DNA of 35,444 nt from a virus, in IMG/VR virus record IMGVR_UViG_3300045988_134116; one strand, 5' to 3'. How positions within the stretch are numbered: position 1 is the first letter of the stretch; every line of letters starts with the position of its first letter. The notes beneath the pieces are model-generated. The model worked only from the letters and a program-made list of their open reading frames with translations. It made no database searches and had not been told where the DNA came from. Positions 1 to 29,249 of the stretch are shown here, in pieces. The position numbers and the translations under genes were made by a program.

Positions 1-92
1 CATTATTCAATCATTTGCACATTTGCACATTCGCACATTTGCACATTGATTAAGCTCATTAAACTCATAACTCATTAAACTCATAACTCATT
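1..92. repeat. Right half of intercistronic octamer-array element IOE-1 (continues from 35318..35444 across the circular junction), followed by a 2 x 16-nt direct repeat
   Basis: Tandem ATTTGCAC/ATTCGCAC octamers at 12-47. TCATTAAACTCATAAC occurs at 56-71 and 72-87 and ends 5 nt before the ATG at 93. Positions 1-55 are identical to 35390-35444. Confidence 0.85.
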
Positions 93-569
93 ATGGAAAA
101 AACTGGTTATATCAATGGTAGTGACCTCTTGCTCTCATTAGACGGCAAGGCCGTGGGTCACTGTTCAAGCCACAAAGTAACGTACAACTCTGAGACAAAG
201 GAGAGAGCCGTGAAGCCTGTAGCAACGCAAGGCGCGGGTGCAGGACTTTGGAAGGACAAGAGCGTTACAGGACTTTCTATCACAATTAGTGCCGACGGCC
301 TCCGCTTCTACGACGAGACGGAGAGCGGCTTCACCGAGATTTCTGCCTCTTGGGGCGTAGGTAAGGCCGTTGACGTGAAATGCTTCCCACGTGGCGACGG
401 CAAGGCAGGTACGCAAATTCCTTACCTTGAAGGAAAGTTTGTGATCACCTCTATCGAAGAGGACGCTCCAGCGCAGGACGACGCTACGTATAGCGTTAAC
501 CTCGAGAACGCGGGCATGCCTACTAAGTTCCCTGGTATGGAAGCCGCGGCTGCAGCGCAGACTAAATAA
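93..569 (+). CDS. Major tail protein (TP901-1/phi13-like)
   Basis: 158-aa ORF. Across the circular junction it follows the head-tail joining genes. The size and the N-terminal LLLSLDGKAVGHCSSHKVTYNSETKE plus C-terminal ATYSVNLENAG patterns resemble siphovirus major tail proteins. Confidence 0.6.
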   Translation: MEKTGYINGSDLLLSLDGKAVGHCSSHKVTYNSETKERAVKPVATQGAGAGLWKDKSVTGLSITISADGLRFYDETESGFTEISASWGVGKAVDVKCFPRGDGKAGTQIPYLEGKFVITSIEEDAPAQDDATYSVNLENAGMPTKFPGMEAAAAAQTK

Positions 570-758
570 ATGTGCGAATGTGCAAATGTGCAAATGTGCG
601 AATGGTCGCCTTTGTACGCTGAGTAATTAAAGCATCATTCAATCATTCTCACATTTGCACATTCGCACATTGATTAAGCATTTGCACATTGAGTAATTAA
701 AACATCATTCAATCATTCGCACATTTGCACATTTGCACATTTGCACATTAACAACCCC
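570..758. repeat. Intercistronic octamer-array element IOE-2 (forward core, plus a second partial core)
   Basis: The left arm is tandem AATGTGCR octamers starting right after the stop codon. The core is GGTCGCCTTTGTACGCTGAGTAATTAAAGCATCATTCAATCATT. The right arm is YGCACATT octamers running up to the ATG at 759. Confidence 0.9.
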
Positions 759-1220
759 ATGCAACTAAAACGTCTCGTAATCCACTGCACCGCCACTCCT
801 GAGGGCCGCGAGGTGACAGCGGCCGACATACGCCACTGGCACTGCGACCCCGTGAGCAAAGGAGGTCATGGTTGGAAGCAGGTAGGATATACCGACCTCG
901 TCCACCTCGACGGCCGCATAGAACGGCTCGTCAAGAATAATGAAGACTTGATAGTCGACCCTTGGGAGGTGACCAATGGAGCAAGCGGCTACAACTCCAC
1001 ATCGCGCCACATCGTCTACGCGGGCGGCTGCGATAGGCAGATGAGGCCGAAGGACACACGCACCGCTGCACAACGCACCGCCCTTGAGGCCTACGTCAAG
1101 GATTTCCACCGCCGCTTCCCTACGGTTAGCATCGTTGGCCACAATCAGTTGAACCCCAGTAAGGCTTGTCCTTCGTTCGACGTAAAGAAGTGGCTCAACG
1201 AGATTGGAGTAAACTTATAA
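759..1220 (+). CDS. N-acetylmuramoyl-L-alanine amidase (Amidase_2/PGRP-type endolysin)
   Basis: Motifs LVIHCTATPEG, GWKQVGYTDLV, RHIVYAGG and IVGHNQL..KACPSFDV are typical of T7-lysozyme-like amidases. The ATG at 759 is preferred over the TTG at 741, which lies inside the repeat. Confidence 0.85.
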   Translation: MQLKRLVIHCTATPEGREVTAADIRHWHCDPVSKGGHGWKQVGYTDLVHLDGRIERLVKNNEDLIVDPWEVTNGASGYNSTSRHIVYAGGCDRQMRPKDTRTAAQRTALEAYVKDFHRRFPTVSIVGHNQLNPSKACPSFDVKKWLNEIGVNL

Positions 1221-4050: not shown

Positions 4051-7000
4051 ATGGCTTCAAAAGAAATAAAATTCAACCTTAGGCTCGCTATTGACGGGAA
4101 GGAGCAACTGGTGAGCGCAGTGACATCGGCAAAAGAACTCAAAGCCTCTTTTAATGGCGTACAGAAAGAAGTTGATGACTTTAGCAACACCTTCACCAAT
4201 AAATTCAGCAAATGTTTTGCCAACGTCAACCAAATAATAGGCGCAGTTAATAGTGTTAGCGCGGCACTTCAAAGCCTCACGGCCGATAGCGACTCTTTTG
4301 CCAAATCAATGGTCGTAGCTAACACTATGGCGGGCAAAGGGGGCAAGGACTTTGCAGCGTTGAAAGATAGCGTGACCGACTTGTCGAAAGAGATTCCACT
4401 CACGCGTGACGAACTTGCGAACGGCCTTTACCAAGTTATCAGCAATGGCGTACCCGAAGACAACTGGATAGATTACCTGCGAGCTTCGGCCAAAGCGAGT
4501 GTGGGCGGTGTGGCCGATTTGGGCGAAGTCGTTAAGGTCACTTCTACGTTAATAAAGAGCTACGGCCTATCGTGGAAAGACGCTACCGCCATTCAAGATA
4601 AGATACAGCTAACGGCAAAGAATGGTGTAACGTCGTTTGAAGAAATGGCGCAAGCCTTGCCTCGTGTGTCGGGTGATGCGGCTACGTTGGGTGTGAGCGT
4701 TGACGAACTTATGGCCACCTTTGCCTCGCTTACAGGCGTTACAGGTGGAACGGCCGAAGTTAGCACACAGTTGGCGGCCGTATTTACGGCCTTGGTTAAG
4801 CCCTCTTCTGAAGCTACGAAAATGGCACAACAAATGGGCATCGAGTTTAACGCTGCTGCCATTAAGAGTGCGGGCGGCTTCCGTCAGTTCCTCACGCAAC
4901 TCGATGCGAGCGTGAAGGGATATGCGCAAAGTTCGGGTATGTTGTCGAAAGAGGTGTATGCAAAACTCTTCGGATCAGCCGAAAGCCTACGCGCCATTGG
5001 GCAACTTACAACTCAGCAAAAGGACAGATTTGCCGAAAACGCTGAGGCTATGAAGGGCAGTGCTGGTACGATGGAGGAATCGTTTAAAATGGTGGACAGT
5101 ACAAGCAGCGCAACTATTCAAAAGATAGAGAACAGTTGGGGCGGATTAACTGACTACATTGCATCGGCCGTTAAGTTTTTAAAGCCAGCGCTTAATTTTG
5201 TGGCTACTATTGGACTTGCTTTAAATGCCTTCCAAACCATAACGCTATCACTCGGAAAGTTTAAAATAGCGGCTTTTGCCGCAGCCGTTAGGATTAAAGC
5301 ACTTGCCGTAGCTCAAACCGTTTGGAAAGTTTCCACTATCGCGTGCGCCACAACTACACGTGTGCTCAGCGGTGCTTTAGTAGCCTTGGGCGTGAGTGCC
5401 AACGTGGCAAAAGGAGCTATTCGTGGATTGTTGGCTTCGACAGGTGTCGGCATTGCCATTGCGGCTTTAGGCTTTGCGGTGGAAAAGGTGATAGGCTACT
5501 TCGACAAGTCGACCGAATCTATTGAAGACAATACTGACGCGCTAAAGGAGAACCGACGTGCCACCACTCAGGCAGAGCGAAACCGCGAGGCGCTGAATAG
5601 CATTCAGAAGACAGCGGCCGACAAGTATGCCGACGAGAAAGCGCGCATCGCGGCACTTACGCAGATTATTCACAACAGCAATGCGGAATACGCGGAGCGC
5701 ATGAGTGCGATTAAGCGACTGCAAAGTATCATTCCTTCCTATCACGCACAAATCAGTAAGGACGGCTCGATATACGAGAAGAATGCGGAAGCGATTGATA
5801 AGTATATTAAGAAGCTGGACGAATTGGCTTGGGCTGAGGCTGCGGCCGACATGGTGAAGGACTTAAACAAGCAAATCATCACGTTCCAACTAAAGGCCGA
5901 CGAGGACCAAGAGCGCATCGACGCTTATCAGGGCAACATCAACGAGCGCAACAAGCAACGACATGGGGGAGCTATCGACCTCACACGCCCCGAAACGTAT
6001 AAGGTGGACGGAACGCCTCTCACGGCTCAACAGATAGGCGAGAACAGACAAATAGATAAGGCCAACGCACGCACCAAGGGATTTCAGAACAACGTAATAA
6101 AAGACCGTGACTACAACCTTGGACGCGCCAACGACTTGACGCAACGAAAGAATGCCGTGTTCGCTATGGCGGGCAAACGTGGCTATACTTCTGCGCTTCA
6201 TAATGCGTTAACGGGTAATGCCGAAACTCTCGAAAGGCCAGCCTACACGCCTCCATCGCACGCCACCACGACCACTCACAAGCCTACTCGCACCCCGACA
6301 CACACCCCCTCCACCCATACCGACAACGCTCCCACCTACGACGAGAAGAGCATTGAATGGTACGACAAGGAGATTAGCAAGCAGAAGGAACTGGCGCAAA
6401 GCACTAACAACCTCGATGCAGCGAAGAAGGCGATGGCTGAGGCTACACGACTGGAGGGAGAGCGCAAGGAGTTGGCCGTGAAGGTGGGAATTGAGAAGCC
6501 TGACGCGCCAGAGGTGAAAACTGCGTTGGAGGCTCTGCAGGACCAACTACGCGCGGCTCAAACGGACTTCGACAATGCCGTGACCGTGGAGGCGAAAGTA
6601 GCTGCCATGACGAAGGTGGACGCGCTACAGGCACAAATTAATGAGGCGACGAATGGGCGACTAACGATTGAAGCGGAGGTAGAACCGCAGTACACGCAGA
6701 CTGGCTCAGTAAGCGATAAGCGCAAGTCGTATGCCAACGCGCAGACGAAGGCCTCACGCGTCAAGAACGACTACGACATTGGCCTCATCAGTAAGGAGGA
6801 GGCTCAACGACAGGTGGACGACATTAACAAGGTGTTGTCGTCGCTGAAGTTGAAACCTATCACCGTGGACTTTGACACGACAAGCGTTGAAAAGGGTACG
6901 GGCAAGATGCGCGAGGGCGCACAGAGCATTCAGCAGTTGGGCAGCAGCATCGCGCAATTAGGCTCACAGGTGCAAGAACCTGTACTCAACATTGCGGGTA

Positions 7001-7464
7001 CGATCGCACAAGCCATTGCTACGATGGTGTTGGGCTACGCTGAGGCTTCGAAAGATGCAAGTAAGCTTACGCCCTTCGGGTGGATAGCCTTTGCCGCTAC
7101 AGGACTTGCTACGTTGCTGACGATGATAGCTTCTATCAAGTCGGCCACGAGCGGCAGCTACGCGCATGGTGGTATCATACCTGGGGGCAGCTATTCGGGC
7201 GATCGATTGACGGCCAATGTCAATTCGGGTGAGATGATTATCAACCGTCGTCAGCAGTTGCAGCTATGGCGCATGGTGCAAGCGCCTTTGGCCTCAGCTC
7301 CGCAGTACACTACTCCTTCAAGCATGGTGCCGAGCCTCAACCTCGCGGCCTTACGCAATAGCTTTGGTGCGCAGCGCGTCGACGTGAATGTGAGTGGACG
7401 CATCAGCGGACGCGACTTGCAACTCATTACCGATAAACGAAACAAAATTACTTCAAGAGCATAA
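4051..7464 (+). CDS. Tail tape measure protein
   Basis: 1137 aa. It has a TP901-type core (ELANGLYQVISNGVPEDNWIDYLRASAKASVGGVADLGEVVKV), central TM-like helices, long coiled-coil segments and a C-terminal GGIIPGGSYSGDRLTANVNSGEMIINRRQ. Confidence 0.9.
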   Translation: MASKEIKFNLRLAIDGKEQLVSAVTSAKELKASFNGVQKEVDDFSNTFTNKFSKCFANVNQIIGAVNSVSAALQSLTADSDSFAKSMVVANTMAGKGGKDFAALKDSVTDLSKEIPLTRDELANGLYQVISNGVPEDNWIDYLRASAKASVGGVADLGEVVKVTSTLIKSYGLSWKDATAIQDKIQLTAKNGVTSFEEMAQALPRVSGDAATLGVSVDELMATFASLTGVTGGTAEVSTQLAAVFTALVKPSSEATKMAQQMGIEFNAAAIKSAGGFRQFLTQLDASVKGYAQSSGMLSKEVYAKLFGSAESLRAIGQLTTQQKDRFAENAEAMKGSAGTMEESFKMVDSTSSATIQKIENSWGGLTDYIASAVKFLKPALNFVATIGLALNAFQTITLSLGKFKIAAFAAAVRIKALAVAQTVWKVSTIACATTTRVLSGALVALGVSANVAKGAIRGLLASTGVGIAIAALGFAVEKVIGYFDKSTESIEDNTDALKENRRATTQAERNREALNSIQKTAADKYADEKARIAALTQIIHNSNAEYAERMSAIKRLQSIIPSYHAQISKDGSIYEKNAEAIDKYIKKLDELAWAEAAADMVKDLNKQIITFQLKADEDQERIDAYQGNINERNKQRHGGAIDLTRPETYKVDGTPLTAQQIGENRQIDKANARTKGFQNNVIKDRDYNLGRANDLTQRKNAVFAMAGKRGYTSALHNALTGNAETLERPAYTPPSHATTTTHKPTRTPTHTPSTHTDNAPTYDEKSIEWYDKEISKQKELAQSTNNLDAAKKAMAEATRLEGERKELAVKVGIEKPDAPEVKTALEALQDQLRAAQTDFDNAVTVEAKVAAMTKVDALQAQINEATNGRLTIEAEVEPQYTQTGSVSDKRKSYANAQTKASRVKNDYDIGLISKEEAQRQVDDINKVLSSLKLKPITVDFDTTSVEKGTGKMREGAQSIQQLGSSIAQLGSQVQEPVLNIAGTIAQAIATMVLGYAEASKDASKLTPFGWIAFAATGLATLLTMIASIKSATSGSYAHGGIIPGGSYSGDRLTANVNSGEMIINRRQQLQLWRMVQAPLASAPQYTTPSSMVPSLNLAALRNSFGAQRVDVNVSGRISGRDLQLITDKRNKITSRA

Positions 7465-7596
7465 CGCCTATGGCGAATGTGCAAATGTGAGAATGTGCAA
7501 ATGTGCAAATGATTGAATGCATTTGTAAATGCGCGTACAAAGGCGACCATTTGCACATTTGCACATTCGCACATTTGCACATTAAAAAAACATACT
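7465..7596. repeat. Intercistronic octamer-array element IOE-3 (reverse core)
   Basis: Left arm GAATGTGCAAATGTGAGAATGTGCAAATGTGCAAATG. The core ATTGAATGCATTTGTAAATGCGCGTACAAAGGCGAC is inverted relative to IOE-2. Right arm CATTTGCACATTTGCACATTCGCACATTTGCACATT. Confidence 0.9.
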
Positions 7597-9972
7597 ATGT
7601 TGCATAAAAGATACGCTGGCAGTTTTGTTAACTGCAAGGGCCAAACGTGGAGGGTCGAAATATGGCAAGCGGCCAATGCGCCTTTCACTTCCGTTGGTAG
7701 CCTCACGTTTGATGCCGACACGCCACTTGAATTAGAATGGGAGGAGCGCGAAAAGTACGAAACCACTTGTGGCGCAACGCTCACGATCAACATCGTGAGT
7801 CCTGCTGACCGCACGTTTACTGACCTCTTCCAAATCAGTCCAGGCAATGTCATGGCGCACGTCTACCTTGACGATGCGCTCTTTTGGGTGGGTGGCCTCG
7901 ACTGCGAAACGTATGAAGAGCCTTACCAGTCGGAGAAGGACTACACCGTCACACTCACCTTTACTGACTTCGGCCACATGCAGCGCCTAAAGTATGGCGA
8001 AACGGGGGGCATTAAGTCGGTGCGCCACTACATTGACTATTGCCTTGAGCAGGTGGGCCTCAGCGCAGTGCCAGTAGAGGTGTTTACGTCGTTAGAGATG
8101 AACGACAACGTGCTATGGGAGCATTGTGACCTTACACGCCTATACGTTGATGCTGCCAACTTCTACGATGAGGACGGTGAAGCCTCAACGCTTGACGAAG
8201 TGTTGAACGGTGTGCTGCAACCGCTTGCCTTGCGTATCGTGCAGCGTGCGGGCAAGATCATGGTGTACGACTTGAATGCGTTGCGCAATAATCCACCCAA
8301 GGTAGAAGAAATCACATGGGACGCTACGGAGCAAACGCTATCGGTAGATAAGTTGGCGCAAGCGGCCGTCGTTAAGTTCTCGCCCTACACGGGTGGCGAC
8401 CTCCTGTCCGACAACAGCGTAACCATAAAACAAGACCGACTGACAGAGGTGGGCAGCGTGTTTAACATGTTTGGCCCTGGGTTCAAAACGTACGAGATAA
8501 GTCGTTTCTTCCATTCTGCCTCTGATAGTGCTGCCACTGGCCTTACGCAAAAGCACCCCGATGCGCATTTCTTCAAAATGGTGAAGACGGGTACGGGGGG
8601 CGGAGCGTGTGAGGGCCTTGCGTGGCTGGCCTTAACGAATTGCTGGCCGCGCAATAACCTCACGCTCAATGGGCAACAATCGCCTTTGGGGAGAGACGCC
8701 CATTATGCCTATGTCGAAGCTAACACAAGCGAAAACGTCGTTACGCGTGCCTTCAACGACCTATCGGGTACGTTGGACGAAGTGCTGATGCGTTTCCCTC
8801 GTGTGTACTGCCCTGCGGCCCAAAATCAAGTGTCAGAAGACGTGATGCGCTCTTACATTCACCTCACTATGGAGATGATGATAGACCCGCGCCTCAACCC
8901 ATTTGCCGAGGCAAAGGACGAAACGAACGAAAAGGACAACTTTAATTGGTGTAAGGTGCGCGAGGCTTACTGCTACATTCCCTTCTCGCTCGTCTTGTTT
9001 GACGGCAATGGCAAGGCCATAGCGCAATACCAAGCCAAAGGCTACAATAACGAAGGGCATTGGGTCGCGGTTGAATACGACGATACGAAATACTTCACGC
9101 ATGCGCCCTCTTACCTCCTCTACTATGCCAACTCTAAGAGTGATAGCATAAAGGAGGAGAGCGGCATTCAAGGGTGGTCGAAGAACCATACACACACCCT
9201 TGGCCACGAACGAACTAATGAACAATACGCCACGGAGGGCGAAATCATTCCCCTGCCGAACACTGCGGGTTACTTGGAGTTGACCATTTATACAGGGTGC
9301 ATCATCTTCGACGATATGGACGGAAAGGGGAAGGAATATCCCATTACCAATCCTCAGACGTGCCAACTCGACAAGTCGTTGCCCGACCCTAACGGATTGC
9401 GCGACGTGTGTATTAGCACGCAAACCTCTAAACGTGGGCAACGTATGAATTGGACGCAAAGGTGGTGGCTTTACAAGTTCCCGAAGTTGGAGATCGTACA
9501 AGGCCTCATCGCTGAATCGGTGGAGAAGAGTGATGCAGAATACAGCGCATGGATAAACGCAAGCGCAAAGGACGAGATAAAGATTGACACCATTTGCGGC
9601 ACAGCCTTTGGGAGCGACTTGGGGGTGACGGCACGAGGCGCTTACAAAATTTGGTACTCGTTTTCTCCTGGCCCTGGGCAGACGGAGATTCCTCAACGAT
9701 GTTTCCTGCGTCGCACCAACACGTCTGCGCCTTGGCTGATTGAGTACGACTTGTTAGGGCTACTCTTTAGCCAGTATGGACACCGCGTACCTACGCTTGA
9801 GGGAGAGGCCATTACTCCGCTCTCACCGCTACAGATCTTCACCGACCGCGCGATGCCGAGTGAGGACCTCTTTATGATGAAAAGTGAGGTGCTCAGCGCC
9901 TACGACGGCACGAGTAATATTAAATTTGTAAGGCTCGAACCCGAGGAATGGAACAAAGAAATCATTAAATAA
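7597..9972 (+). CDS. Tail protein (Dit-like N-terminal domain with a large C-terminal extension)
   Basis: 791 aa from the ATG at 7597 and directly downstream of the tape measure gene. The start at 7513 would translate the repeat element. The function is inferred from synteny. Confidence 0.5.
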   Translation: MLHKRYAGSFVNCKGQTWRVEIWQAANAPFTSVGSLTFDADTPLELEWEEREKYETTCGATLTINIVSPADRTFTDLFQISPGNVMAHVYLDDALFWVGGLDCETYEEPYQSEKDYTVTLTFTDFGHMQRLKYGETGGIKSVRHYIDYCLEQVGLSAVPVEVFTSLEMNDNVLWEHCDLTRLYVDAANFYDEDGEASTLDEVLNGVLQPLALRIVQRAGKIMVYDLNALRNNPPKVEEITWDATEQTLSVDKLAQAAVVKFSPYTGGDLLSDNSVTIKQDRLTEVGSVFNMFGPGFKTYEISRFFHSASDSAATGLTQKHPDAHFFKMVKTGTGGGACEGLAWLALTNCWPRNNLTLNGQQSPLGRDAHYAYVEANTSENVVTRAFNDLSGTLDEVLMRFPRVYCPAAQNQVSEDVMRSYIHLTMEMMIDPRLNPFAEAKDETNEKDNFNWCKVREAYCYIPFSLVLFDGNGKAIAQYQAKGYNNEGHWVAVEYDDTKYFTHAPSYLLYYANSKSDSIKEESGIQGWSKNHTHTLGHERTNEQYATEGEIIPLPNTAGYLELTIYTGCIIFDDMDGKGKEYPITNPQTCQLDKSLPDPNGLRDVCISTQTSKRGQRMNWTQRWWLYKFPKLEIVQGLIAESVEKSDAEYSAWINASAKDEIKIDTICGTAFGSDLGVTARGAYKIWYSFSPGPGQTEIPQRCFLRRTNTSAPWLIEYDLLGLLFSQYGHRVPTLEGEAITPLSPLQIFTDRAMPSEDLFMMKSEVLSAYDGTSNIKFVRLEPEEWNKEIIK

Positions 9973-9986
9973 CTACAACTAAGGCT

Positions 9987-12900
9987 ATGGACTATAAAGT
10001 TACAACACGATACGTTACAGCCACGCCACGCAGAGCGCGCAAAGGCAATAACGCTGAGGCCTCAGCCACAAGCAGCGGTGGCGGTGGGGCTTCCATAAGC
10101 AGCGGCAGTGCTGCTACGGCCGATGCTCACACGCACCCCAATCTCGACACGCTGAATCAGCTGGACGCTGCTCCTGCCGACGGCTACCTCTATCTGGATA
10201 GTACCGACACCGACACGGGCGAAACCGTCCGTACCAAGGTGAAGGCAGGATTTGCCGATGAGGCTGCCTCAGCCGACCACGCCACCACGGCCGACGACGC
10301 CACGAATGCTGACAATGCCGACCACGCCACCGAAGCCGATCATGCCGCCGAAGCCGATCATGCCGCTACGGCCGACGACCTTACGCAATGGGGTACGGCT
10401 GATCAGCGTTACCTAAGCCGCCAACACGACGACACGGCCGAGGGGAGCGTCACCTTCCGCAAGGCTACCAACTTCGAAGCCTCAGCACAAAGCCCCGACT
10501 TCGCGAGTAATGGCTTCGCGGGCAGCGGTTGGGCTGCACAAACGGCCGCGGACGGTCAGACCTACGTAGAGGCCGACAACCTCCGCATTCGCGGAAGGCT
10601 CACGGCCTTTGAACTCGTTATCGAAAAGATGCGTGCCATTTGTGGCGCACTGGGCATCAGCCAAGCCTGCGGACGCGTGAAGAGCGTGGACGGGGACGCT
10701 ACGAACTATTACTTAGTATTAGAGGGAGACGACACGCACGGCTACGGAGGTTTCCAAGCGAACGACTTCATACGTTGCCAACGCTGGACATCGAATGGCG
10801 CTCGCGGCTATTGGGTCAGAGTTAGCTTCATAGGCAGCACAGCAGGCGGCCACGACAATGTGTTGGCCATTAATAGGTCGGAGTTCGACGCCGCCATTGT
10901 CGAACCTCATGCGGGCGAGGTCAACGCTTACGACCACGCGCAAGAAGTCACCGCACAAGTAGCCCAACTCGTAACAGACGACCGTACCGCCCTCATCACG
11001 GCCGACGACGGCACGTCCATGCTCCTTGCCGACAATAGCAACGCCCCCATTACAGGGCAAATGGTACTCCCCGAAGTAGGCGACGAGTTGGTGCAATACG
11101 GCAACGCTACCGACCCCACACGCCAAAGCGCCATTTACATTCACGCCAACGGCACGGGGCAACCTGCTATCGACTTACTCACTGGTATCACCTCCAAGAG
11201 CTTTGTCGGTTGTCTCGCTTGTCGCCTTGGCGGCTACCTACCCACGGGCGGCTTTGGCCTTTACGCCAAGAATGGGCAAATCATCTCTCTCTCACCCGAC
11301 GGACGTACCACTCACTACAGCCTCAACCCTGACGGCTCGTTCTCGCTCGGACAAGGGGCTATCGAATACAACGGCAAAGGTGACGTTACGATAGGAAACA
11401 ATGTCACGATCAAATGGGGGCCACAGAGCCAAACGACCTACAAATGGGCCGTTAGTGATAATGGCACGAGCGCGCCTGGAAGCGGTTGGAGCAGTACGTT
11501 CCCTACTGACGTGGCGCAAGGTAAGTACATTTGGAAACGCACATTTTATCCCGACGGCACTGAAACTACAGAGTTGATTGGCTTCGTTGGTAAGGACGGT
11601 GTTAAGGGCAACCCAGGTGCTAAGGGCGACCCAGGCCCTATTGGCCCGCAAGGCCCTATTGGTCCACGAGGCCCTATTGGGCCACGAGGTGATGACGGAG
11701 CAGACGGAATAAGCCTACATAGCAACCTTCTCGTGCATACCGACTTCGCGCCAAGGGCAGAGAACTACGCTGGCACGTGGCTCAATTTCCGCTCCTCGCT
11801 CGCTACGATTAACGGCACGCTGAACGAGGGAGCAGCGGTTGGTGATACGGATATGCTCTCGGCTTCGGTATCAACACAGACGGACATGTTCCAATATAAT
11901 GTAACAAAGTTGCTCAACCCTTCGACATGGTACGTCATAGGCATTACAATGCGTGGCACAGGTACTGCCACTGTATATTGTTATCCCGATACGAACGAGC
12001 AAACAATCTACGTTGACGGAAAGGTAGGCGGCTCACCAAGTGATACAAGTGCAGGATTTGCATTGACCTCAACATGGAGACGACATTACATCGCATTCTG
12101 CACGAAGTCAAGCCTTAGCGGTACAAAGTCTGTACTTGTACGATTGTCAAGTGGCGCGCAAGCAGACATCTCAATGGTCACATTGGGTAGACCATACGGA
12201 GGTGGCTCAACATTAACCGCTGACGGCTACATTCAGAATGATGCGCAGCTTATTCGCATGGCTACACCTTCCAACATGGAAACGTTCTGTGGTATCAACT
12301 CTTTGTGTGCATGGCGAAGCAGTGAACGCGAGTTTGACTTTTATTCGCAATCGTTAGGCTCAATAATCATTTCTGGACAATGGTACACACTATCTTTCTA
12401 CGCACGTGGCTCAGGTAGTATCAACACATACGTATATGATTATGGAGGACGCGTCTTGTCTGATGCAAGCGCAGATATGCCATTAGCAGACGGAGTGAAA
12501 GAAACTGCATTTAAGAATGACGGAAGCCATACATGGGAGCTAACCGCAGAATGGGTGCGACACATCTACACCTTCCGCGTCCGCACGGACGGCACTTACT
12601 CCAATCCGCTCTTACTATTCAGAGCAACAATAGGCACGAGCGGTGATTTCATCGCTATCAATCAAGTAAAGCTTGAATTGGGCAAAAACGCTTCGGATTG
12701 GTGCTTAAACGAAATGGACAAGAAAGCAGTTTCCTTGCCCGATTGGCTGAAAGCTTTCAATGGCTACACCATGATTGGTGACAATTACATAGCAAGTGGT
12801 AATGCGTTCTTTGGCCGAAAAGAGATTGACGGCACTTACACAGGCTGCATGATGTCGTCTAACGGATTGCAGATAGGGGGCAATACAGTCGTGGGTATGT

Positions 12901-13622: not shown

Positions 13623-13688
13623 TAAAAAAGCGCACCCGAAGGCGCGCCATAAATTACAACCATTACAAACTTACAAAAAACAAATAAC

Positions 13689-14705: not shown

Positions 14706-14772
14706 GCGTATTGTTTGACTACTACAAAAAGACGTAGTATCTTTGTATTGTATTAAGAAAGATAACATACGC

Positions 14773-14820: not shown

Positions 14821-14842
14821 TTTTGTGAGCTATTTGTGAGCA
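14821..14842 (+). promoter_or_regulatory. Candidate integrase arm-type site, left copy (TTTTGTGAGCTATTTGTGAGCA)
   Basis: This 22-nt sequence is repeated exactly at 15076-15097. Each copy contains TTGTGAGC twice, 11 nt apart. The two copies flank the tRNA-fragment core. Confidence 0.5.
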
Positions 14843-14896
14843 GCAATTAAAGCCAAATTCTAAAAGTATATGATAATCAATACATTATACACAATC

Positions 14897-14948
14897 GCGC
14901 ACCTGCTTTGGGAGCAGGGGGTCGTGGGTTCGAATCCCGTCGCCCCGA
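14897..14948 (+). other. attP core: 3' fragment (about positions 22-73) of tRNA-Pro(UGG)
   Basis: The anticodon arm CCTGC-TTTGGGA-GCAGG gives anticodon TGG with G37. It is followed by GGGTC, the T-arm GTGGG-TTCGAAT-CCCGT and the acceptor 3' strand CGCCCCG plus A. No matching 5' acceptor (CGGGGCG) or D-arm lies upstream. The integrase gene is 170 nt downstream. Confidence 0.8.
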
Positions 14949-15075
14949 CATAAGGAAAACCGCTGATTATCAAGTTGTTAAGGCTTGGTAATTGGCGGTT
15001 TTATTGTTTGTTGTTACTCGTTTTTTTACCGCATTTTGGCCTCATTTTGGCCGTTTTTGGCTTATTTTGTATCGT

Positions 15076-15097
15076 TTTTGTGAGCTATTTGTGAGCA
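15076..15097 (+). promoter_or_regulatory. Candidate integrase arm-type site, right copy
   Basis: Exact repeat of 14821-14842. It is preceded by helically phased T-tracts at about 15021-15080, spaced 10-11 nt apart. Confidence 0.5.
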
Positions 15098-15119: not shown

Positions 15120-16391
15120 ATGGCATATAAATTAAAGTGGTATTTAGATTTAAGGCGTAAGGACGAACAAGGGAAAGGGCGGCTTTGTATCGTTATTTAC
15201 AATCGTGGAACGTCGGCAATGCTGAGCACGGGGGTGATGTTGCGCGAGGGAGAGTTTGTGAACGGTAGGGTGGTGGGCGCGCCCATGGCGGCACAGCTGA
15301 CGCAGTTGCTGCGACTGAAAATGGCAAAGGTGCAATTGACTGTTGAAGAGGTGGCGTGCTTTAATGATGTTCAAGCAATGAGGGCAAGCGAGATTAAGGC
15401 GGCTTTGCTCGATCGGCTGGAGTTGAATGGGAATGGGGGTGAGGCCGTTGGAGAGGAGAAACAGGAGGAAGCGCGTTTTTTGCCGTTTGCTGAAACGTTT
15501 GTGAGTCGGTGTAAGAAGGAAAGAACGGCGGGCGTGTATAAAATGACTTTACAGAAGTTGAGGAAGTTTTGTAAGTTGGAGGAGTTGTGCTTTAAAGATG
15601 TGACGGTGGGGTGGCTGAAGGATTTTGAGGTTTGGATGGCTGACACCTGCAGCACGAACACGCGGGGCATACACTTTCGCAATATTCGTGCCGTGTTTAA
15701 TGCTGCAATAGATGAAGAGGTGATACCGGCCGAAATGTATCCTTTTAGGCGATTTAAGATAAAGAAGGAGGAAACGATGAAACGCTCGCTAAGGTTGGAG
15801 GATTTGAGGCGGTTGATGCGTTACCCTTGCGAAGAGTGGCAAAAGAGGTATGTCGACCTTTTTATGCTTTCGTTTTATCTGGCGGGCATTAATATGATTG
15901 ACCTCATGGAGTTGCCTCCGCTGAATGAGAGTGGCGTGATTGAATACAGGCGGAGCAAAACGGGGGTTGTGTGTCGGCTGACGGTTCCACCTGAAGCGCT
16001 GGAGATTATTGAGCGTTATAAGGGGGTGAAACGTTTGCTTTATTTTGGCGAGCGTTTGAGTGGTGGCGTTGAGGCGTGGAAGGGTTTCCTTCGTAACGTG
16101 AATGACGGGCTGCAACGTGTTGGTCCGTCGTGTTATGTGTACGTAAAGCATAAGGGCAAACGGGCGAAAGAACGGGTGAAAGTGTATAGCGGTTTGTTTC
16201 CCGATCTTACCTCCTATTGGGCGCGCCACACGTGGGCAACGTTGGCCTCAGAACTTGACGTGCCTGATGCAGTGATAGATGCTGCTTTAGGTCACAAGTC
16301 GCCCTATCCAATGGCCGACATATATATAAGGCGAAACGCTAAGAAGGTAGATGAAGCCGTGAGGCGCGTGATTGATTATGTAAGGGGGTAA
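15120..16391 (+). CDS. int: Tyrosine-type site-specific integrase
   Basis: 423 aa. The C-terminal catalytic region has SYWARHTWATLA (HxxR), LGHKS and ADIYIRR (catalytic Tyr). The gene is adjacent to the tRNA-fragment attP. Confidence 0.9.
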   Translation: MAYKLKWYLDLRRKDEQGKGRLCIVIYNRGTSAMLSTGVMLREGEFVNGRVVGAPMAAQLTQLLRLKMAKVQLTVEEVACFNDVQAMRASEIKAALLDRLELNGNGGEAVGEEKQEEARFLPFAETFVSRCKKERTAGVYKMTLQKLRKFCKLEELCFKDVTVGWLKDFEVWMADTCSTNTRGIHFRNIRAVFNAAIDEEVIPAEMYPFRRFKIKKEETMKRSLRLEDLRRLMRYPCEEWQKRYVDLFMLSFYLAGINMIDLMELPPLNESGVIEYRRSKTGVVCRLTVPPEALEIIERYKGVKRLLYFGERLSGGVEAWKGFLRNVNDGLQRVGPSCYVYVKHKGKRAKERVKVYSGLFPDLTSYWARHTWATLASELDVPDAVIDAALGHKSPYPMADIYIRRNAKKVDEAVRRVIDYVRG

Positions 16392-17188: not shown

Positions 17189-17217
17189 GCCTCCCACGTG
17201 AGTGGGGGGCTTTTTTT
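17189..17217 (+). terminator. Rho-independent terminator of hicAB
   Basis: A 9-bp stem GCCTCCCAC/GTGGGGGGC with a GTGA loop, followed by T7. Confidence 0.75.
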
Positions 17218-17353: not shown

Positions 17354-17770
17354 CTAATGTCCCGCCAAAAGGACCTTTATAAGTCTTTCTTTTCCTTCTA
17401 TAAGTTTCTTTAGATACTCGTTTTCTTTCTGCAAAAAAGCCACGTCGGAGGCAGCATTCGACGTCAAAAAAGACTCGCTTTTATCGATACTTTGGCTATT
17501 CACAAGCATTTCCTGTAGGTTGTTATGGTTTCCACTAACATTTACCGAAGTACTATTGTCCTCAGGTAAAAGCATGTCCCCCTCCCCTGTAAGCAGCCAA
17601 TTACCATCAACTTGTGGGAAACGTTGCTTGATACGTACAAAATCTAAGGTCTCTCGTGCCTTCCATGTGGATACTGTGCTCTGACGCACGTTTAAAAGTC
17701 TGGCAAATAGCGTTTGATTACCATGCGCATATTGCAGCACTAACTGTTCTAATTTTTCTTTATTATTCAT
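17354..17770 (-). CDS. CI-like phage repressor (HTH, Phage_CI_repr-like)
   Basis: 138 aa from the ATG at 17770. It has the HTH GNQTLFARLLNVRQSTVSTWK and the signature NWLLTGEGDML. It is transcribed divergently from the early genes. Confidence 0.7.
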   Translation of the reverse strand: MNNKEKLEQLVLQYAHGNQTLFARLLNVRQSTVSTWKARETLDFVRIKQRFPQVDGNWLLTGEGDMLLPEDNSTSVNVSGNHNNLQEMLVNSQSIDKSESFLTSNAASDVAFLQKENEYLKKLIEGKERLIKVLLAGH

Positions 17771-17854
17771 TTTTATTGGTCTAAATGTCGCAAAATGCCT
17801 AAATAAAGCAAAAACGTTTGGTTTATGTTTGCAATTTATTATATCTTCGCACTC

Positions 17855-17869
17855 GTAAACAATGTTTAC
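17855..17869. promoter_or_regulatory. Candidate operator palindrome GTAAACA-A-TGTTTAC
   Basis: A perfect 7-1-7 palindrome in the divergent intergenic region. Related half-sites (ATGTTTAC, TATGTTTGC) lie nearby at about 17826 and 17918. Confidence 0.4.
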
Positions 17870-17897
17870 CGAACGCAATAAATGTTGTTTAAACTGC

Positions 17898-17922
17898 AAA
17901 TGTAAAGAATCGATGTTATGTT
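17898..17922. repeat. Right copy of the 25-bp perfect inverted repeat bracketing the repressor gene
   Basis: AAATGTAAAGAATCGATGTTATGTT is the exact reverse complement of 17322-17346. Confidence 0.9.
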
Positions 17923-20226: not shown

Positions 20227-20517
20227 ATAAGCCGTTTGTACACTATCAACCATTAAAGCACGACGCTGCGGTGTGAGTTGCTCCCCCATTGCTTACATAT
20301 AGTGAGTGAGGTGTGAAGCTTGCAATGCGCAGTCCAAATACGAAAGAGGATGACACAGGAGGGGGAAAGACGCAATGAGTGTTCTTTCTATCCTTGCAAT
20401 GCGAACTCGGGCGATGACACAGGAGGCCGCCTCACCCCAATAAGTGGTGAGGGGGAATGCAACAGAGAGGCCGCAGTGTTGTGCTACTTATTGACTTTAC
20501 ACGAAACCACACGAATT

Positions 20518-21423
20518 ATGAGCCGACAGAAGAAGTCGGGCTTAGATTACTTCCCTTTCGAAGTAGACTTTTTTCAAGACATTAAGATACGCAAGTTAAT
20601 TCGGCGTAACGGTGGTAAGGCGATCGCAGTATATGCTCTCCTGCTATGCTATATTTACAAGAGTGGGTATTTCATGACGTGGGATAAAGAGTTGCCCTTC
20701 ATCATTTCGGAACAAACGGGGTATGGAGAGGTGTATATACAAGAAGTCTTAGAGAGCTGCCTTACGTTAGGGTTGTTAGACAGGCGTATGCTTGACGAGG
20801 AAGGTGTACTGACGAGTAGAGGTATTCAAGAACGATACAAAAAGATATGTGTAGATAGTAGGCGTGCAGCATCGATTGAGCGATACAACCTTATCGACGA
20901 AAATTCGACTGAAACTGTCGAAAGTCCGACGAAAGATGTATCAATCTTCGGTAAAAAAGCCGATAAATGTACAAACTTGTGCAAGAAAGCACCATTTCTG
21001 CGCAAAAGTGTGCAAGAAAGTACACAAAGTAAAGTAAAGGAAAGTAAAGAAAAAGACGATGTAGAAAAAGCGCCACCGTCGCCACCGACGACGGAAGACG
21101 TTGAAGCCTCGTTTACGGGATTGTTAGCATCGTTGAGGGCTGAGGCTTCATGGTGTGAGTTGGTGCGTATGCGTTACCACTTGGGCGGTGATGAGCTACA
21201 CGAGTGGCTTGACGCCTTTGCGCTCGACTGTCGCGTCAACGACAAGGCGCAGCACACCGACCTCACCGACCTCAAACGCCACTTTACTTCGTGGCTTCGC
21301 ATTCAACAACAACAAAATCGCAACTGTCATGGCACGAAAAATAGCAATGCCAGCTCCCTTGCCCGACGCAAAGGAGTTGATGTCGCAGCTACTTCGGCAG
21401 CGGACTACAGCACACGCCTTTAG
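20518..21423 (+). CDS. Replication organiser-like protein (DUF4373 / Lin1244-Lin1753 N-terminal domain)
   Basis: From the ATG at 20518: LDYFPFEVDFFQDIKIRKLIRRNGGKAIAVYALLLCYIY. It is followed by the helicase-loader-like ATPase. The upstream part of the 20320 ORF covers a repeat and hairpin region. Confidence 0.6.
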   Translation: MSRQKKSGLDYFPFEVDFFQDIKIRKLIRRNGGKAIAVYALLLCYIYKSGYFMTWDKELPFIISEQTGYGEVYIQEVLESCLTLGLLDRRMLDEEGVLTSRGIQERYKKICVDSRRAASIERYNLIDENSTETVESPTKDVSIFGKKADKCTNLCKKAPFLRKSVQESTQSKVKESKEKDDVEKAPPSPPTTEDVEASFTGLLASLRAEASWCELVRMRYHLGGDELHEWLDAFALDCRVNDKAQHTDLTDLKRHFTSWLRIQQQQNRNCHGTKNSNASSLARRKGVDVAATSAADYSTRL

Positions 21424-22006
21424 GCTTCCCCTGGCGGTCGAAGACGCTTATTGTCTGCTCTACTCTGCCTACGAGGTGGAGGTGGAGCGCAGAGGGCGCA
21501 CGCTGCAAATGGACGAAGATACGACGCGCATCGTAGGCGAAGTGGCTCACCACCTTACTGGGCCGCAACCCAATGGGCTGCTATTCTGTGGCACAACGGG
21601 CAATGGTAAGACCACCTTGGCGTTGGCCCTGCAGAATGCCGTGGAATGGCTTAGGGCGCGGAGTATGTTGCCAACGGAGTTCATGCAGTACGACCTCGAC
21701 ACGGTACGCTTCGTTGAGGCTCGCCACGTGGCTGCCACCTACAAGACGACGAAAGATCGCCTCATGAGCATTGGGGTGTTGGCCATTGACGATGTAGGCA
21801 CAGAGCCTGCCGAAGTGGTCGACTACGGCAATGTGATAGAACCGATCACCGAGCTACTTGAGGCGCGTTACGCTCGTGGCCTCTTCTCCCTTGTCACTAC
21901 CAACCTAACGGGGCAAGAGCTACGGCAAAGGTATGGCGTGCGATTGGTTGACCGCATGAACGAAATGATGCACGTCGTTGTATTCAAAAACGGAAGTTTC
22001 AGGTAA
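21329..22006 (+). CDS. DnaC/IstB-like AAA+ ATPase (helicase loader-like)
   Basis: Walker A GTTGNGKTT and Walker B VLAIDDVG. The start is uncertain (ATGs at 21329, 21347 and 21380 all overlap the end of the upstream gene). Confidence 0.7.
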   Translation: MARKIAMPAPLPDAKELMSQLLRQRTTAHAFRLPLAVEDAYCLLYSAYEVEVERRGRTLQMDEDTTRIVGEVAHHLTGPQPNGLLFCGTTGNGKTTLALALQNAVEWLRARSMLPTEFMQYDLDTVRFVEARHVAATYKTTKDRLMSIGVLAIDDVGTEPAEVVDYGNVIEPITELLEARYARGLFSLVTTNLTGQELRQRYGVRLVDRMNEMMHVVVFKNGSFR

Positions 22007-24357: not shown

Positions 24358-24507
24358 TAATGTGCGAATGTGCGAATGTGCAAATGTGCGAATGGTCGCC
24401 TTTGTACGCTGAGTAATTAAGACATTATTCAATCATTTGCACATTTGCACATTCGCACATTTGCACATTGCCCACGCATTTGCACATTAGCATATTAAAA
24501 AATAACA
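24358..24507. repeat. Intercistronic octamer-array element IOE-4 (forward core)
   Basis: Left arm AATGTGCGAATGTGCGAATGTGCAAATGTGCGAATG. Core GTCGCCTTTGTACGCTGAGTAATTAAGACATTATTCAATCATT. The right arm is TGCACATT/CGCACATT octamers. Confidence 0.9.
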
Positions 24508-24794: not shown

Positions 24795-25133
24795 ATGGCT
24801 AAAGACAAAGACTACAAGCGAATGATACACACGCGCCACTGGTTGGAACTAAGGCGCATGGTACTCACGGCTCACCCTCTGTGCCAACGTTGTGAGGCTG
24901 AGGGCCGCACGACGGCTGCTACTGAGGTGCATCACGTGCGCCCAGTCGAAGAGGGTACGACCGCGAGGGAGAAGGAGCGGCTCATGTTTGATGCACACAA
25001 CCTCCGCGCCCTCTGCCACGACTGCCACGTGCTGACGCACACAGAGATAGGCCGCTCTGGCCGTAAGGCGAATGCCGAACGCAAGGCGCGGCAGGCCGAA
25101 AGCGTTAACAAACGCTTCTTTGGCGACGAGTGA
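24795..25133 (+). CDS. HNH endonuclease (terminase-associated)
   Basis: CQRCEAEGR...EVHHVRPV...HNLRALCHDCHVLTH are the HNH/zinc motifs. The gene lies upstream of terS and terL, as in HK97-like cos phages. Confidence 0.85.
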   Translation: MAKDKDYKRMIHTRHWLELRRMVLTAHPLCQRCEAEGRTTAATEVHHVRPVEEGTTAREKERLMFDAHNLRALCHDCHVLTHTEIGRSGRKANAERKARQAESVNKRFFGDE

Positions 25134-25381: not shown

Positions 25382-25527
25382 TAAATGTGCGAATGTGCAA
25401 ATGTGCAAATGTGCGAATGATTGAATGATGTTTTAATTACTCAGTGTGCAAAGGCGACAATTTGCACATTTGCACATTTGCACATTGACCACGCATTTGC
25501 ACATTCTCACATTAACACATTGATAAA
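25382..25527. repeat. Intercistronic octamer-array element IOE-5 (reverse core)
   Basis: Left arm AATGTGCGAATGTGCAAATGTGCAAATGTGCGAATG. Reverse core ATTGAATGATGTTTTAATTACTCAGTGTGCAAAGGCGAC. The right arm of octamers runs to the terS ATG. Confidence 0.9.
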
Positions 25528-25875
25528 ATGGCACGCACCACAAAACAATGGTATGCCCGCATCACCAAGGCACTCAAAAAGTCGGGTACTTATAACACCA
25601 GCCTCGAAATGCAGATACAATCGTTGGCAGGAGCTATGCGCACGCTCGAACTCGCCACTGATGAAATTGACAGCCTCGACACCACCGTCGTGTGGGAGGA
25701 GACACGCTACGGCCGCAAGATGATGCCGCACCCCGTGTTTAAAATTCAGCGCGACGCACAAGCCTCCGTCACGCGACAGATGAAGCAGTTACAACTCACC
25801 ACTGAGGAGTTGACCACCGACCAGAGTTCCGACCCATTGATAGACCTAACCCAAAAGCTCATTAATGAACAGTAG
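25528..25875 (+). CDS. terS: Terminase small subunit (P27-family-like)
   Basis: 115 aa and immediately upstream of terL. ...RYGRKMMPHPVFKIQRDAQASVTRQMKQLQLT is consistent with the P27 family. Confidence 0.7.
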   Translation: MARTTKQWYARITKALKKSGTYNTSLEMQIQSLAGAMRTLELATDEIDSLDTTVVWEETRYGRKMMPHPVFKIQRDAQASVTRQMKQLQLTTEELTTDQSSDPLIDLTQKLINEQ

Positions 25876-26068
25876 TTTAATGTGCGAATGCTTAATCAAT
25901 GTGCAAATGTGCGAATGTGCAAATGTGCAAATGATTGAATAATGTTTTAAATACTCAGCGTACAAAGGCGACCATTCGCACATTTGCACATTTGCACATT
26001 TGCACATTGATTAAGCATTTGCACATTGATTAAGCATTACCACATTATCACATTAGCACATTATCAGA
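25876..26068. repeat. Intercistronic octamer-array element IOE-6 (reverse core, extended right arm)
   Basis: The left arm includes AATGCTTAATCAATGTGC. Reverse core ATTGAATAATGTTTTAAATACTCAGCGTACAAAGGCGAC. The right arm has GCACATTGATTAAGC twice, then CACATTAT/CACATTAG units. Confidence 0.9.
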
Positions 26069-27775: not shown

Positions 27776-27863
27776 GAAAAGCGTATCAATTTGTAGTCCT
27801 TTGCCGTTAATACGGATATTAGTATCTTTGCATTGTTCTAATAACGAAAAACAGGAAGAAACA

Positions 27864-28274
27864 ATGAAAGAAGTAAAAGCAATTATCGAGCGTTCCTCAG
27901 AGGGGCGCTATAGTATTTACATGGACGACGATACGCTATCTTATCTTATAACGGCTGAGGGTGCTACGCTTGATGAAGCTAAGGACGACTTCATGACTTA
28001 TTACAACGAGACAAAAGAATATTTCAAGAGCCATAACGAAGCATTTGAAGAAGTAGAGTTTGACTTCTGTTACGATATGGCCTCTTTCTTACAGCACTAT
28101 GCCTATGCGTTTACGTTAGCAGGTCTTTCACGCATTACTGGCGTCAATCAAGGGCAATTATCACATTATATTAATGGGACTTCACGCCCCTCAGCACGCA
28201 CTATTGAAAAGATAGAAAACGGCATAAGCAGTTTTGCGCAAACACTGTCGGGTGTTCATTTCGTACGTCCGTAA
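27864..28274 (+). CDS. Orphan HicB-like antitoxin-family protein with a C-terminal HTH
   Basis: 136 aa from the ATG at 27864. EGRYSIYMDDD..ITAEGATLDEAKDDF is HicB-like, and LAGLSRITGVNQGQLSHYINGTSRPS is an XRE-type HTH. It has the same architecture as 16744..17157, but no hicA is adjacent. Confidence 0.6.
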   Translation: MKEVKAIIERSSEGRYSIYMDDDTLSYLITAEGATLDEAKDDFMTYYNETKEYFKSHNEAFEEVEFDFCYDMASFLQHYAYAFTLAGLSRITGVNQGQLSHYINGTSRPSARTIEKIENGISSFAQTLSGVHFVRP

Positions 28275-28520: not shown

Positions 28521-28543
28521 GCCACGCGGCAAGCGCGCGTGGC
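28521..28543 (-). terminator. Terminator of the minus-strand gene 28581..28793
   Basis: An 8-bp stem GCCACGCG / CGCGTGGC. On the minus strand it is followed by TTTTTATT. Confidence 0.55.
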
Positions 28544-28793: not shown

Positions 28794-28814
28794 ATTGTAT
28801 TAACTGATGTTTCG

Positions 28815-29061: not shown

Positions 29062-29249
29062 TGGAACTTGAGTATTAATGTTTTACCGCTTTGTCTAAAC
29101 CAACTGATACCTTGAGAAATCTTTCGGTGAACATTGTTTTAAACACTGCAAATATAGCAACAATGTCACATTATTCCACCCAACTCTCACTTTTTTCAAA
29201 GAAAAACGCCCCAAGGTGGTACCACCTACACACCTTTTGCGCGTAGGGT

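Follow-up and report, generated by a model that had tools for sequence, protein, structure and literature searches.

Palindromic intergenic repeats with a core in either orientation in a temperate human-gut phage and in the chromosomes of its host lineage

Introduction

The IMG/VR virus record IMGVR_UViG_3300045988_134116 is a complete temperate siphovirus of about 35.4 kb from a Prevotella-like host (Bacteroidota) of the human gut, and the whole stretch of 35,444 nucleotides that was analysed is referred to here as the window. At 7465-7596, between the tape-measure gene and the next tail gene, lies a small repeat element in which a short asymmetric core is enclosed by two arms that are inverted repeats of each other. 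A preliminary description had counted seven such elements, three with the core forward and four with the core reverse-complemented, and had noted that all flanking genes are on the plus strand; the split was confirmed by the strand positions of a core 13-mer, and the strand of the genes by their annotation. The question raised by this locus is what the two orientations stand for: fossils of past flips, an active switch like the invertible segments known as invertons, or an element that works symmetrically, for example as a protein-binding site or as a hairpin whose loop does not matter. We compared orthologous junctions in related phages and looked for the same repeats in bacterial chromosomes. 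The explanation that we favour overall, and hold to be reasonably probable, is that these are palindromic repeats shared with the host whose cores are flipped occasionally and whose function lies in the arms.

Results

Architecture of the elements

Palindromic repeat elements were observed in eight gaps of the packaging, head and tail operon, always between plus-strand late genes, and none was found in the lysogeny or replication region (Table 1). In general they consist of a short core between two octamer arrays, (AATRTGNN)n on the left and (NNCAYATT)n on the right. With inverted arms and a size of 130-200 bp they resemble a miniature inverted-repeat transposable element (MITE), for which terminal inverted repeats and a length of 50-500 bp are typical. 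The seven family-A elements, all in late-operon intergenic gaps, read (AATGTGCR)x4, an asymmetric core of 36-43 nt, and (YGCACATT)x4, and four units (32 bp) are the commonest array length. By chance, 0.01 occurrences of a 13-mer from the core, GTCGCCTTTGYRC, would be expected in the window. There are eight, three of them on the plus strand (605, 24395, 35362) and five on the minus strand (7535, 25446, 25960, 32493, 32550). Triple-unit arrays (CAYATT-NN-CAYATT-NN-CAYATT) gave 45 matches in the window with 0 expected. With orientation normalised, the seven family-A cores had a mean column identity of 91%, and whole elements of opposite orientation paired as inverted repeats of 103-131 nt that were 90-94% complementary. 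The core of the 7465 element differs from the other family-A cores in the alignment by a divergent centre, GCGCATTTACAAATGCA, and this variant (GTCGCCTTTGTACGCGCATTTACAAATGCATTCAAT, minus strand) was seen only at its own junction.

Core orientation in related phages

Relatives were collected by a terL-based scan and a DNA-pattern scan of IMG/VR together with a metagenome scan, which yielded about 25 contigs 93-98% identical to the window. Junctions, each named below by the start of the corresponding window element (J7465 and so on), were located through the flanking coding sequence, and the DNA between the flanks was then classified. This comparison had been called for in the preliminary description, and it revealed family-A cores in both orientations at the same junction. 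Forward and reverse cores numbered four and three at J7465, nine and two at J24358, five and three at J25876, one and ten at J32421, and six and one at J35318; all five at J570 were forward and all four at J25382 were reverse. Each assembled contig gives a single orientation at a given junction. Further forward and reverse cases came from metagenome contigs, and the short family-B core was likewise found both ways round.

Two junctions document the flips directly. At J7465 the full 40-nt core variant specific to this junction was reverse in the window and in relatives 124513 and 110344, and forward in 068579, while all four shared an identical left arm, including an odd AATGTGAG unit, and an identical right arm. 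At J25876, L223 (reverse) and L225 (forward) had identical outer flanks and the same pattern of left-arm units, with cores one nucleotide apart after reverse-complementing, and reverse-complementing the core of 127861 (reverse) gave exactly the core of 121586, 105998 and 18492_170. Since the marked arms stayed fixed while near-identical cores were reverse-complemented, the arms remain in place and the core turns in situ between them.

Orientation is nevertheless inherited. The closest relative (98.1% identical) had the same family and the same orientation as the window at all eight junctions, a relative at 97.9% differed by one flip, and a group at about 95% showed changes at many junctions, with each junction having a dominant state. 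Orientation is thus heritable over roughly 2% sequence divergence, and the two states seen in the window therefore record occasional past events and not a running switch; orientation looks like an inherited polymorphism that changes from time to time. Among the options first put forward for the two states, fossils of flips and a hairpin whose loop does not matter fit these data best.

The comparison of relatives establishes that events producing flips took place, and their molecular pathway can be sketched from the structure of the elements. Because the arms are mutually reverse complements, recombination, gene conversion or a template switch between them can reinstall the core either way round. 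A donor copy could align in either orientation, and the core would then be set one way or the other by a conversion patch, or by a template switch across the hairpin; events of this kind could equally bring in the core of a different copy or family. For a spacer of about 40 bp, an ordinary reciprocal crossover inside a single molecule is improbable on steric grounds. The earlier proposal that recombination between the arms flips the core agrees with the finding of the same marked arms around opposite cores at J7465 (window and 068579) and at J25876 (L223 and L225, 127861 and 121586). We consider it quite probable that events between the arms, followed by inheritance, account for the two orientations.

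Variation in family, unit number and site

Orientation is one of several properties that vary at these junctions. Other families with the same architecture and with different arms and cores can occupy the same sites, namely family B (core GGCTGCGCCACTC), family C (GAGTGGCACAATCC), family D (CGCAGCACCGC) and a 9-mer family with arms GTTTAATRA and YCATTAAAC. Cores also move between junctions, identical core variants having turned up at different ones, and families replace one another. The number of units ranged from 3 to about 20 and was not constant even among phages as close as the window and its 98%-identical relatives, and partial cores had been gained or lost; this supports the earlier suggestion of slippage or recombination inside the arrays, which had been based on the extra partial cores that we also find in two window elements (Table 1).

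The same architecture was assembled from a different octamer in L061 (IMGVR_UViG_3300045988_175129), a lineage with a terL 76% identical, where many inverted pairs of period-8 arrays were observed, (AAGTTNAN)n and (NTNAACTT)n around cores of the GTCGC…GTGAC type, for example at 4520-4640, 7410-7606 and 8736-8867.

In several relatives the core of a 9-mer-armed element at J35318 is one copy of a module that the window carries twice elsewhere, as inverted copies of 126 nt (28803-28928 and 28948-29073) that are 85% complementary and 19 nt apart. This module is GC-rich with GAAA-capped hairpins and lies in a 1-kb gap poor in open reading frames (ORFs) between 27765-28274 and the portal gene. Among Rfam families it resembled only Acido-Lenti-1, below threshold (18.5 bits where the gathering score is 37, E = 0.15), and each of the two copies folded alone was unremarkable (z about -1.4).

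The major tail protein gene, which has elements on both sides, was 87% identical in 110344 and 091528 where its neighbours were 95-97% identical, and it looks like a swapped cassette from this pattern of identity. The idea that the elements are breakpoints of mosaicism in general was examined and rejected, as jumps in identity were no larger at the elements than at other gene junctions or at random positions (p = 0.97, 0.10).

The same repeats in host chromosomes

The elements are not specific to phages. A scan of one genome per species returned at least 120 stretches of AATGTGCR arrays, and the matches listed came overwhelmingly from Bacteroidota. Prevotellamassilia timonensis, an Alloprevotella metagenome-assembled genome and Prevotella sp. 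UMGS287 were rich in them, with dozens of loci each, and a fourth rich source was a bin labelled 'Christensenella sp. UBA1685' (L105, L109, L118, L174 and other CAVCAV010000xxx contigs). This label is probably wrong and the genome one of the Bacteroidota, because the bin encodes PorV (type IX secretion) and SusC-like receptors. A second hairpin repeat, the GC-rich GGAGGCGACGTTTSAAACGTCGC, is abundant in the same bin. The repeat family is thus abundant in chromosomes of the host lineage; neither this nor the replacement of one family by another at the same junction had been recognised in the preliminary description.

Paired arrays in the host matches listed had the polarity AATGTG…core…CACATT in 35 cases and the opposite polarity in none. 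The AATG-GTCGCCTTTGTAC end of the core was also found in host chromosomes, on both strands, and some host cores had GTCGCCTTTG…CAAAGGCGAC at both ends, so to judge by sequence the phage core looks like an asymmetric version of a partly symmetric host element. One phage copy and the host element L191 had 59 identical nucleotides in common (the left arm plus the start of the core), an identity that points to phage-host exchange or to a recent common origin. In Prevotella sp. UMGS287 a related prophage (L211) shares the terS and terL start and the element families of the window, and the metagenome contigs bearing such phages, from OWPL01, UEQL01, ERZ791902, ERZ1023626, OMCE01, ORRX01 and ERZ1032078, are from the human gut. 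Together with start codons that lack Shine-Dalgarno sequences and an integrase of the Phage_int_SAM_5 type, this speaks for a Prevotella-like host of the human gut.

At gene boundaries the host layout was stop-(AATGTGNN)n … (NNCACATT)n-ATG. Among the matches listed, 76 of 86 single arrays had the 3' end of their NNCACATT reading against the nearest gene boundary, and the other end pointed into the intergenic space (median distance about 180 nt). Where the boundary was a start codon the gap was mostly 4-14 nt, and on the stop side the array often overlapped the stop codon as TAATGTG. The adjoining genes are ordinary housekeeping genes; for loci within L102-L221 we take the neighbours, named from their N-termini, to be tyrS, aroQ, mraY, gyrB, folD, tgt and rplD/rplW. 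Related species carried arrays at the same positions with differing unit counts (L117 and L162, L143 and L144). Between distant arm pairs, in 8-kb genome pieces, the ORFs were housekeeping only (rlmL, porV, ispF, ribF and others) and no transposase was seen. One contig, L188 (CAVCAV010000269.1, 3179 nt), was left out of the analysis, as its ends are mutually reverse-complementary over about 650 nt; this hairpin shape is probably an assembly artefact at a palindromic repeat.

Composition, folding and signal searches

The 40 nt before the ATG contained 8% G at element junctions, compared with 16% at other genes of the window and 26% window-wide, and the right arm was longer than the left in 77 of 114 elements from the phage and its relatives. 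In the NNCACAUU reading an array is free of AUG, while the AAUGUGNN reading has one AUG per unit. A G-poor sense strand was also observed in other unit families, both in the 9-mer CATTAAAC type and in the L061 octamers NTNAACTT. Two further arrays in the window are G-poor and AUG-free like the right arms, but have no inverted partner: the G-free array of CTCATTAAA/CTCATAA units directly upstream of ATG 93 (56-92), and a G-free 7-mer array, CCCTAAC/CACTAAT, at 34316-34378 before ATG 34389.

Folding gave near-perfect stems of about 35-40 bp on either strand (-60 to -70 kcal/mol, z about -9), with the 7465 element at about 40 bp, -65 kcal/mol and z = -8.8. Covariance models from Rfam had no match at gathering thresholds in the whole window. 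No core in either orientation contained TAnnTTTG or TTTG-N19-21-TAnnTTTG, and a sigma-70 scan gave no match within any core. The arms themselves were rejected as Bacteroidota promoters because TTTG, recurring every 8 nt in the arrays, gives a spacing of 24 or 32 nt and a -33/-7 promoter needs 27-29 nt. DnaA boxes and Chi-like sites, considered from sequence resemblance and arm polarity, were also dropped, as the overlapping 8-bp spacing is unsuitable for the former and the placement at gene boundaries for the latter. The repeat strings appeared in no paper in our literature searches, and searches on Prevotella REP or MITE elements gave nothing relevant.

Discussion

A possible function for the arms

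The working part of the element would be the arms and not the core. Start codons in the window lack Shine-Dalgarno sequences, and in Bacteroidetes, as Baez et al. describe, low secondary structure and upstream A residues tune initiation, and AUG is depleted around start codons (PMC6847099). The start-side arm is oriented in keeping with these rules. The array on the start side is AUG-free and G-poor and would be unstructured as RNA, which would suit initiation in Bacteroidota without Shine-Dalgarno pairing, and the AUG-rich complementary array that follows the upstream stop codon may pair with the inner units of the right arm into a stem of about 35 bp. Such a stem might serve as an intercistronic site of RNA processing, as a stability barrier or as an element of translational coupling. 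As the core would be the loop of this stem, its orientation should not matter. We offer a specific RNA-level function of the arms tentatively, at somewhat less than even chances.

Several observations weigh against this reading. Selection on a stem in the sense RNA was expected to give a better fold on the plus strand and more G.U pairs, but the result went the other way, the minus strand folding on average 7 kcal/mol better and having 696 G.U pairs compared with 323. The better fold of the minus strand follows from the long right arms, whose antisense is G/U-rich. With a plus strand that is no better folded and with no G.U bias toward the sense strand, nothing in the elements points directly to selection for a stem in the sense RNA. 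A leader alone also does not account for the preference for the AATGTG reading after stop codons. The one ground for thinking that the arrays are transcribed is their place between cistrons, and host start-side arrays are mostly intercistronic; the -7 promoter box is not enriched upstream of them, and the idea that they lie just behind promoters was rejected, with TAnnTTTG upstream of 2 of 28 against 23% of ordinary upstream regions. Finally, J25382 was empty in five relatives, some of them close, and distant relatives have gaps of only 11-13 nt at the same junctions. Since they manage with such gaps, this type of phage can do without the elements.

A wider version of the idea would make the arrays a gene-boundary signal system of Bacteroidota common to hosts and phages, in which a (NNCACAUU)n leader promotes or licenses initiation and a post-stop (AAUGUGNN)n array pairs with that leader to couple or gate translation or to direct the processing of RNA. 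The unit type of the host would then be kept or acquired by its phages, and swaps of family, unit number and core orientation might tune the stoichiometry of late genes between phage strains. We regard this as rather unlikely.

Alternative explanations

One alternative also leaves the core without a role: the arms would be arrays of binding sites for a host or phage protein, with the element symmetric on DNA and the core a spacer. This would account for the strict 8-bp period of the CAYATT hexamer, which persists in the right arm also where its units lack a complementary partner on the left, and it is compatible with a commonest array length of four units, with a polarity toward the gene boundary that is the same for starts and stops, and with the lack of a sense-strand G.U bias. 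However, the 9-mer CATTAAAC and L061 octamers, which are different units, have the same architecture and the same G-poor sense strand, which suggests a property of composition more than one recognition sequence; the 8-bp period is also out of phase with the DNA helix, and no candidate binder was identified. We consider binding of a protein an unlikely basis for the elements.

The orientations might instead be independent insertions, either way round, of a transposing MITE, and not flips at all. The terminal inverted arms, the small size, the many copies in host chromosomes and phage, the presence or absence of an element at J25382, and the appearance of the same core variants at different junctions would all be expected of a MITE, and Correia elements, which are comparable, have likewise been found in a prophage region (PMC2649163). 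Independent insertion does not explain why junction-specific marked arms stay fixed while the orientation of the core changes, or why exactly the same gaps are occupied in all close relatives. Filled and empty sites at J25382 differ without a clean target-site duplication; the empty site, ATTTCACACT, looks like a single degenerate unit, the similarity at filled sites is only an imperfect CACACT/AACACT that also resembles a degenerate repeat unit, and in the loci examined the ORFs between distant arm pairs were housekeeping genes with no transposase among them. We judge insertion by transposition quite improbable as the source of the two orientations.

An active inverton-like switch, in which the core inverts at appreciable frequency in phage or lysogen populations and modulates late-gene expression, had been raised for these elements at the outset. 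Bacteroidota are rich in invertons, and those of Bacteroidales carry promoters, are typically longer than 100 bp and depend on a site-specific invertase. Here, too, inverted repeats (arms of 32-36 nt) flank a segment that is seen in both orientations in a Bacteroidota setting, flips in situ happened several times independently at three or four junctions, and AUG-started mini-ORFs (AUGAUUGAAUAA) are present in the core only when it is reversed. The likeness ends there, with three of the four testable defining features of an inverton absent. No promoter motif was found in any core, and the segment of 36-43 bp is much shorter than known invertons. The sole recombinase gene found is the integrase, 8-9 kb from the nearest element, and the other annotated genes are structural, replication, lysis, HNH or repressor genes, with no invertase gene among them, though the host might encode one. 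Unrelated cores (families B-D) sit at the same junctions, and orientation follows descent, each junction having its dominant state and all eight agreeing with the 98% relative. The inheritance of orientation, the lack of a promoter in the core and of an invertase gene, and a segment of only about 40 bp therefore make an active switch very unlikely.

Least credible of all are intrinsic, possibly bidirectional, transcription terminators between late genes, since the hairpins, though very stable on both strands and placed directly after stop codons, are followed on neither strand by a T-run but by A-runs or start-codon leaders, no terminator-like match coincides with any element while canonical phage terminators (GC-rich stem plus T-run) stand elsewhere at 17189-17210 (+), 13629-13648 (-) and 28521-28543 (-), and eight terminators within one late operon would block its expression without an antiterminator.

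Relation to known repeat systems

The elements belong to the class of palindromic intergenic repeats, and we found no published description of these octamer arrays. The Correia element of Neisseria is nearest to them in behaviour. Correia elements (CREE or NEMIS) are small and intergenic, with inverted-repeat ends and a directional core; their many copies often stand 5' of genes, and they are found within a prophage region as well (PMC2649163). Their inverted ends form an mRNA hairpin that is bound or cleaved by RNase III (PMC2649163). The window elements resemble them in being small and intergenic, in their inverted ends and directional core, in high copy number 5' of genes and in their presence in phage or prophage. 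The ends of CREE, in contrast, are unique 26-nt repeats where ours are tandem octamer arrays, and CREE insert at TA with a duplication, give rise to sigma-70 promoters and may contain a site for integration host factor (IHF), none of which was found here.

Repetitive extragenic palindromic (REP) sequences of Proteobacteria and the related BIME and REPIN families are likewise high-copy extragenic palindromes found in both orientations; in host genomes the GTCGCC core ends of our elements occur on both strands. Both kinds lie mostly within transcription units at gene ends, and mRNA stabilisation and protein binding are the roles proposed for REPs. A REP is one imperfect palindrome of 20-40 nt that bears a GTAG or CGTC tag and is moved by REP-associated tyrosine (RAYT) transposases, whereas the arms here are arrays of variable unit number and direct reading of the arm ends shows no GTAG or CGTC tag. 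The BOX elements of pneumococci are modular intergenic repeats in which tandem boxB units of about 45 nt are central, between boxA and boxC ends. Tandem-unit number varies between copies in BOX as it does here, but our units are 8 nt long and form the inverted ends themselves.

Promoter-early stem-loop (PeSL) cassettes of T4-type phages are repeated intergenic stem-loops that vary between close relatives (PMC2839356, PMC4122927), and in both respects the window elements are like them. A PeSL joins a terminator-like stem-loop to an early promoter, and such cassettes delimit the places where genes have been gained, lost or shuffled (PMC2839356, PMC4122927), whereas no promoter and no excess of identity breakpoints were found at the elements described here. 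Membership in the Correia, REP, BOX or PeSL families is not established, because the ends are octamer arrays, because we saw no clean target-site duplication, no promoter, no IHF site and, in the loci examined, no transposase, and because breakpoints are not enriched.

If palindromic repeats with functional arms and occasionally flipped cores are indeed what we observe, human-gut Prevotellaceae and their temperate phages would share a family of intergenic palindromes whose arms are octamer arrays with strict start/stop polarity, and this would provide a testable candidate for the marking or insulation of cistron boundaries in a phylum that does not use Shine-Dalgarno sequences. The repeat family is common to phage and host chromosome, down to the 59-nt stretch shared with L191. 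The elements are also the fastest-evolving sites of these phages, changing in family, unit number and orientation where the genes around them are about 95-99% identical, and could serve as strain markers. For pipelines that detect invertons they are a reason for caution, as such palindromes can mimic invertible DNA without being switches.

Other features of the window

Coordinates of the elements, of their parts and of the annotated genes are collected in Table 1. Window bases 1-55 equal 35390-35444, and the element at the end of the window therefore continues at its start.

Table 1. Repeat elements, associated arrays and annotated genes of the window.
Feature	Position	Strand	Remarks
Family-A element	7465-7596		between tape-measure gene (TAA 7462-7464) and next tail gene (ATG 7597); reverse core
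Left arm of 7465 element	7476-7511	+	AATGTGCA AATGTGAG AATGTGCA AATGTGCA AATG; odd AG unit is a junction marker
Asymmetric core of 7465 element	7512-7547	-	reverse orientation; ends ...GCGTACAAAGGCGAC
Right arm of 7465 element	7548-7583	+	CATT TGCACATT TGCACATT CGCACATT TGCACATT; end 13 nt short of ATG
Family-A element	570-758		forward core 605-647; between major tail protein gene and amidase gene (ATG 759); extra right-arm units, partial core 691-717, then second right arm 718-749
Family-A element	24358-24507		forward core 24395-24437; upstream of HNH gene block
Family-A element	25382-25527		reverse core 25416-25458; upstream of terS (ATG 25528)
Family-A element	25876-26068		reverse core 25930-25972; between terS and terL (ATG 26069); right arm extended
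Family-A element	32421-32618		reverse core 32463-32505; 3' of major capsid gene; partial core 32550-32562, second right arm ending 4 nt before ATG 32619
Family-A element	35318-35444		forward core 35362-35404; runs on at window 1-55
Family-B element	30465-30606		arms AATATGCT/AATGTGTT and NNCACATT x9, short core GGCTGCGCCACT; between portal and protease genes
G-free 9/7-mer array	56-92		between end of the 35318 element's continuation and ATG 93 (major tail protein gene)
Major tail protein	93-569	+	
Amidase	759-1220	+	
Tape measure	4051-7464	+	tail proteins onward to 13622
Integrase	15120-16391		Phage_int_SAM_5 type
Repressor	17354-17899	-	
Replication initiator and DnaC-like loader	20320-22006		
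HNH endonuclease	24795-25133		
terS	25528-25875	+	
terL	26069-27775	+	
Portal	29250-30464	+	
Protease	30607-31269	+	
Major capsid	31308-32420	+	

A megablast search with 6 kb of the window against GenBank phages gave no match. The full promoter consensus (TTTG-N19-21-TAnnTTTG) had three plus-strand matches in the window, two of them inside a shared 31-nt repeat, TAGTATCTTTGTATTGTATTAAGAAAGATAA, whose copies are 81% identical and lie at 14714-14765, ahead of the integrase region, and at 27800-27850, inside 27765-28274 and facing the ORF-poor gap. Just upstream of the integrase gene, three TTTTGTGAGCTATTTGTGAGCA motifs (14821-15097) and a 20-bp stem-loop (14956-15002) are candidates for the phage attachment site (attP) or for integrase arm-type sites. 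In-frame tandem repeats were also observed within coding sequence, with a 15-nt period at 2759-2848 in gene 2048-2911, and with 18-nt periods and a collagen-like stretch in the gene for a tail fibre of 1211 amino acids (10254-10379, 11633-11689).

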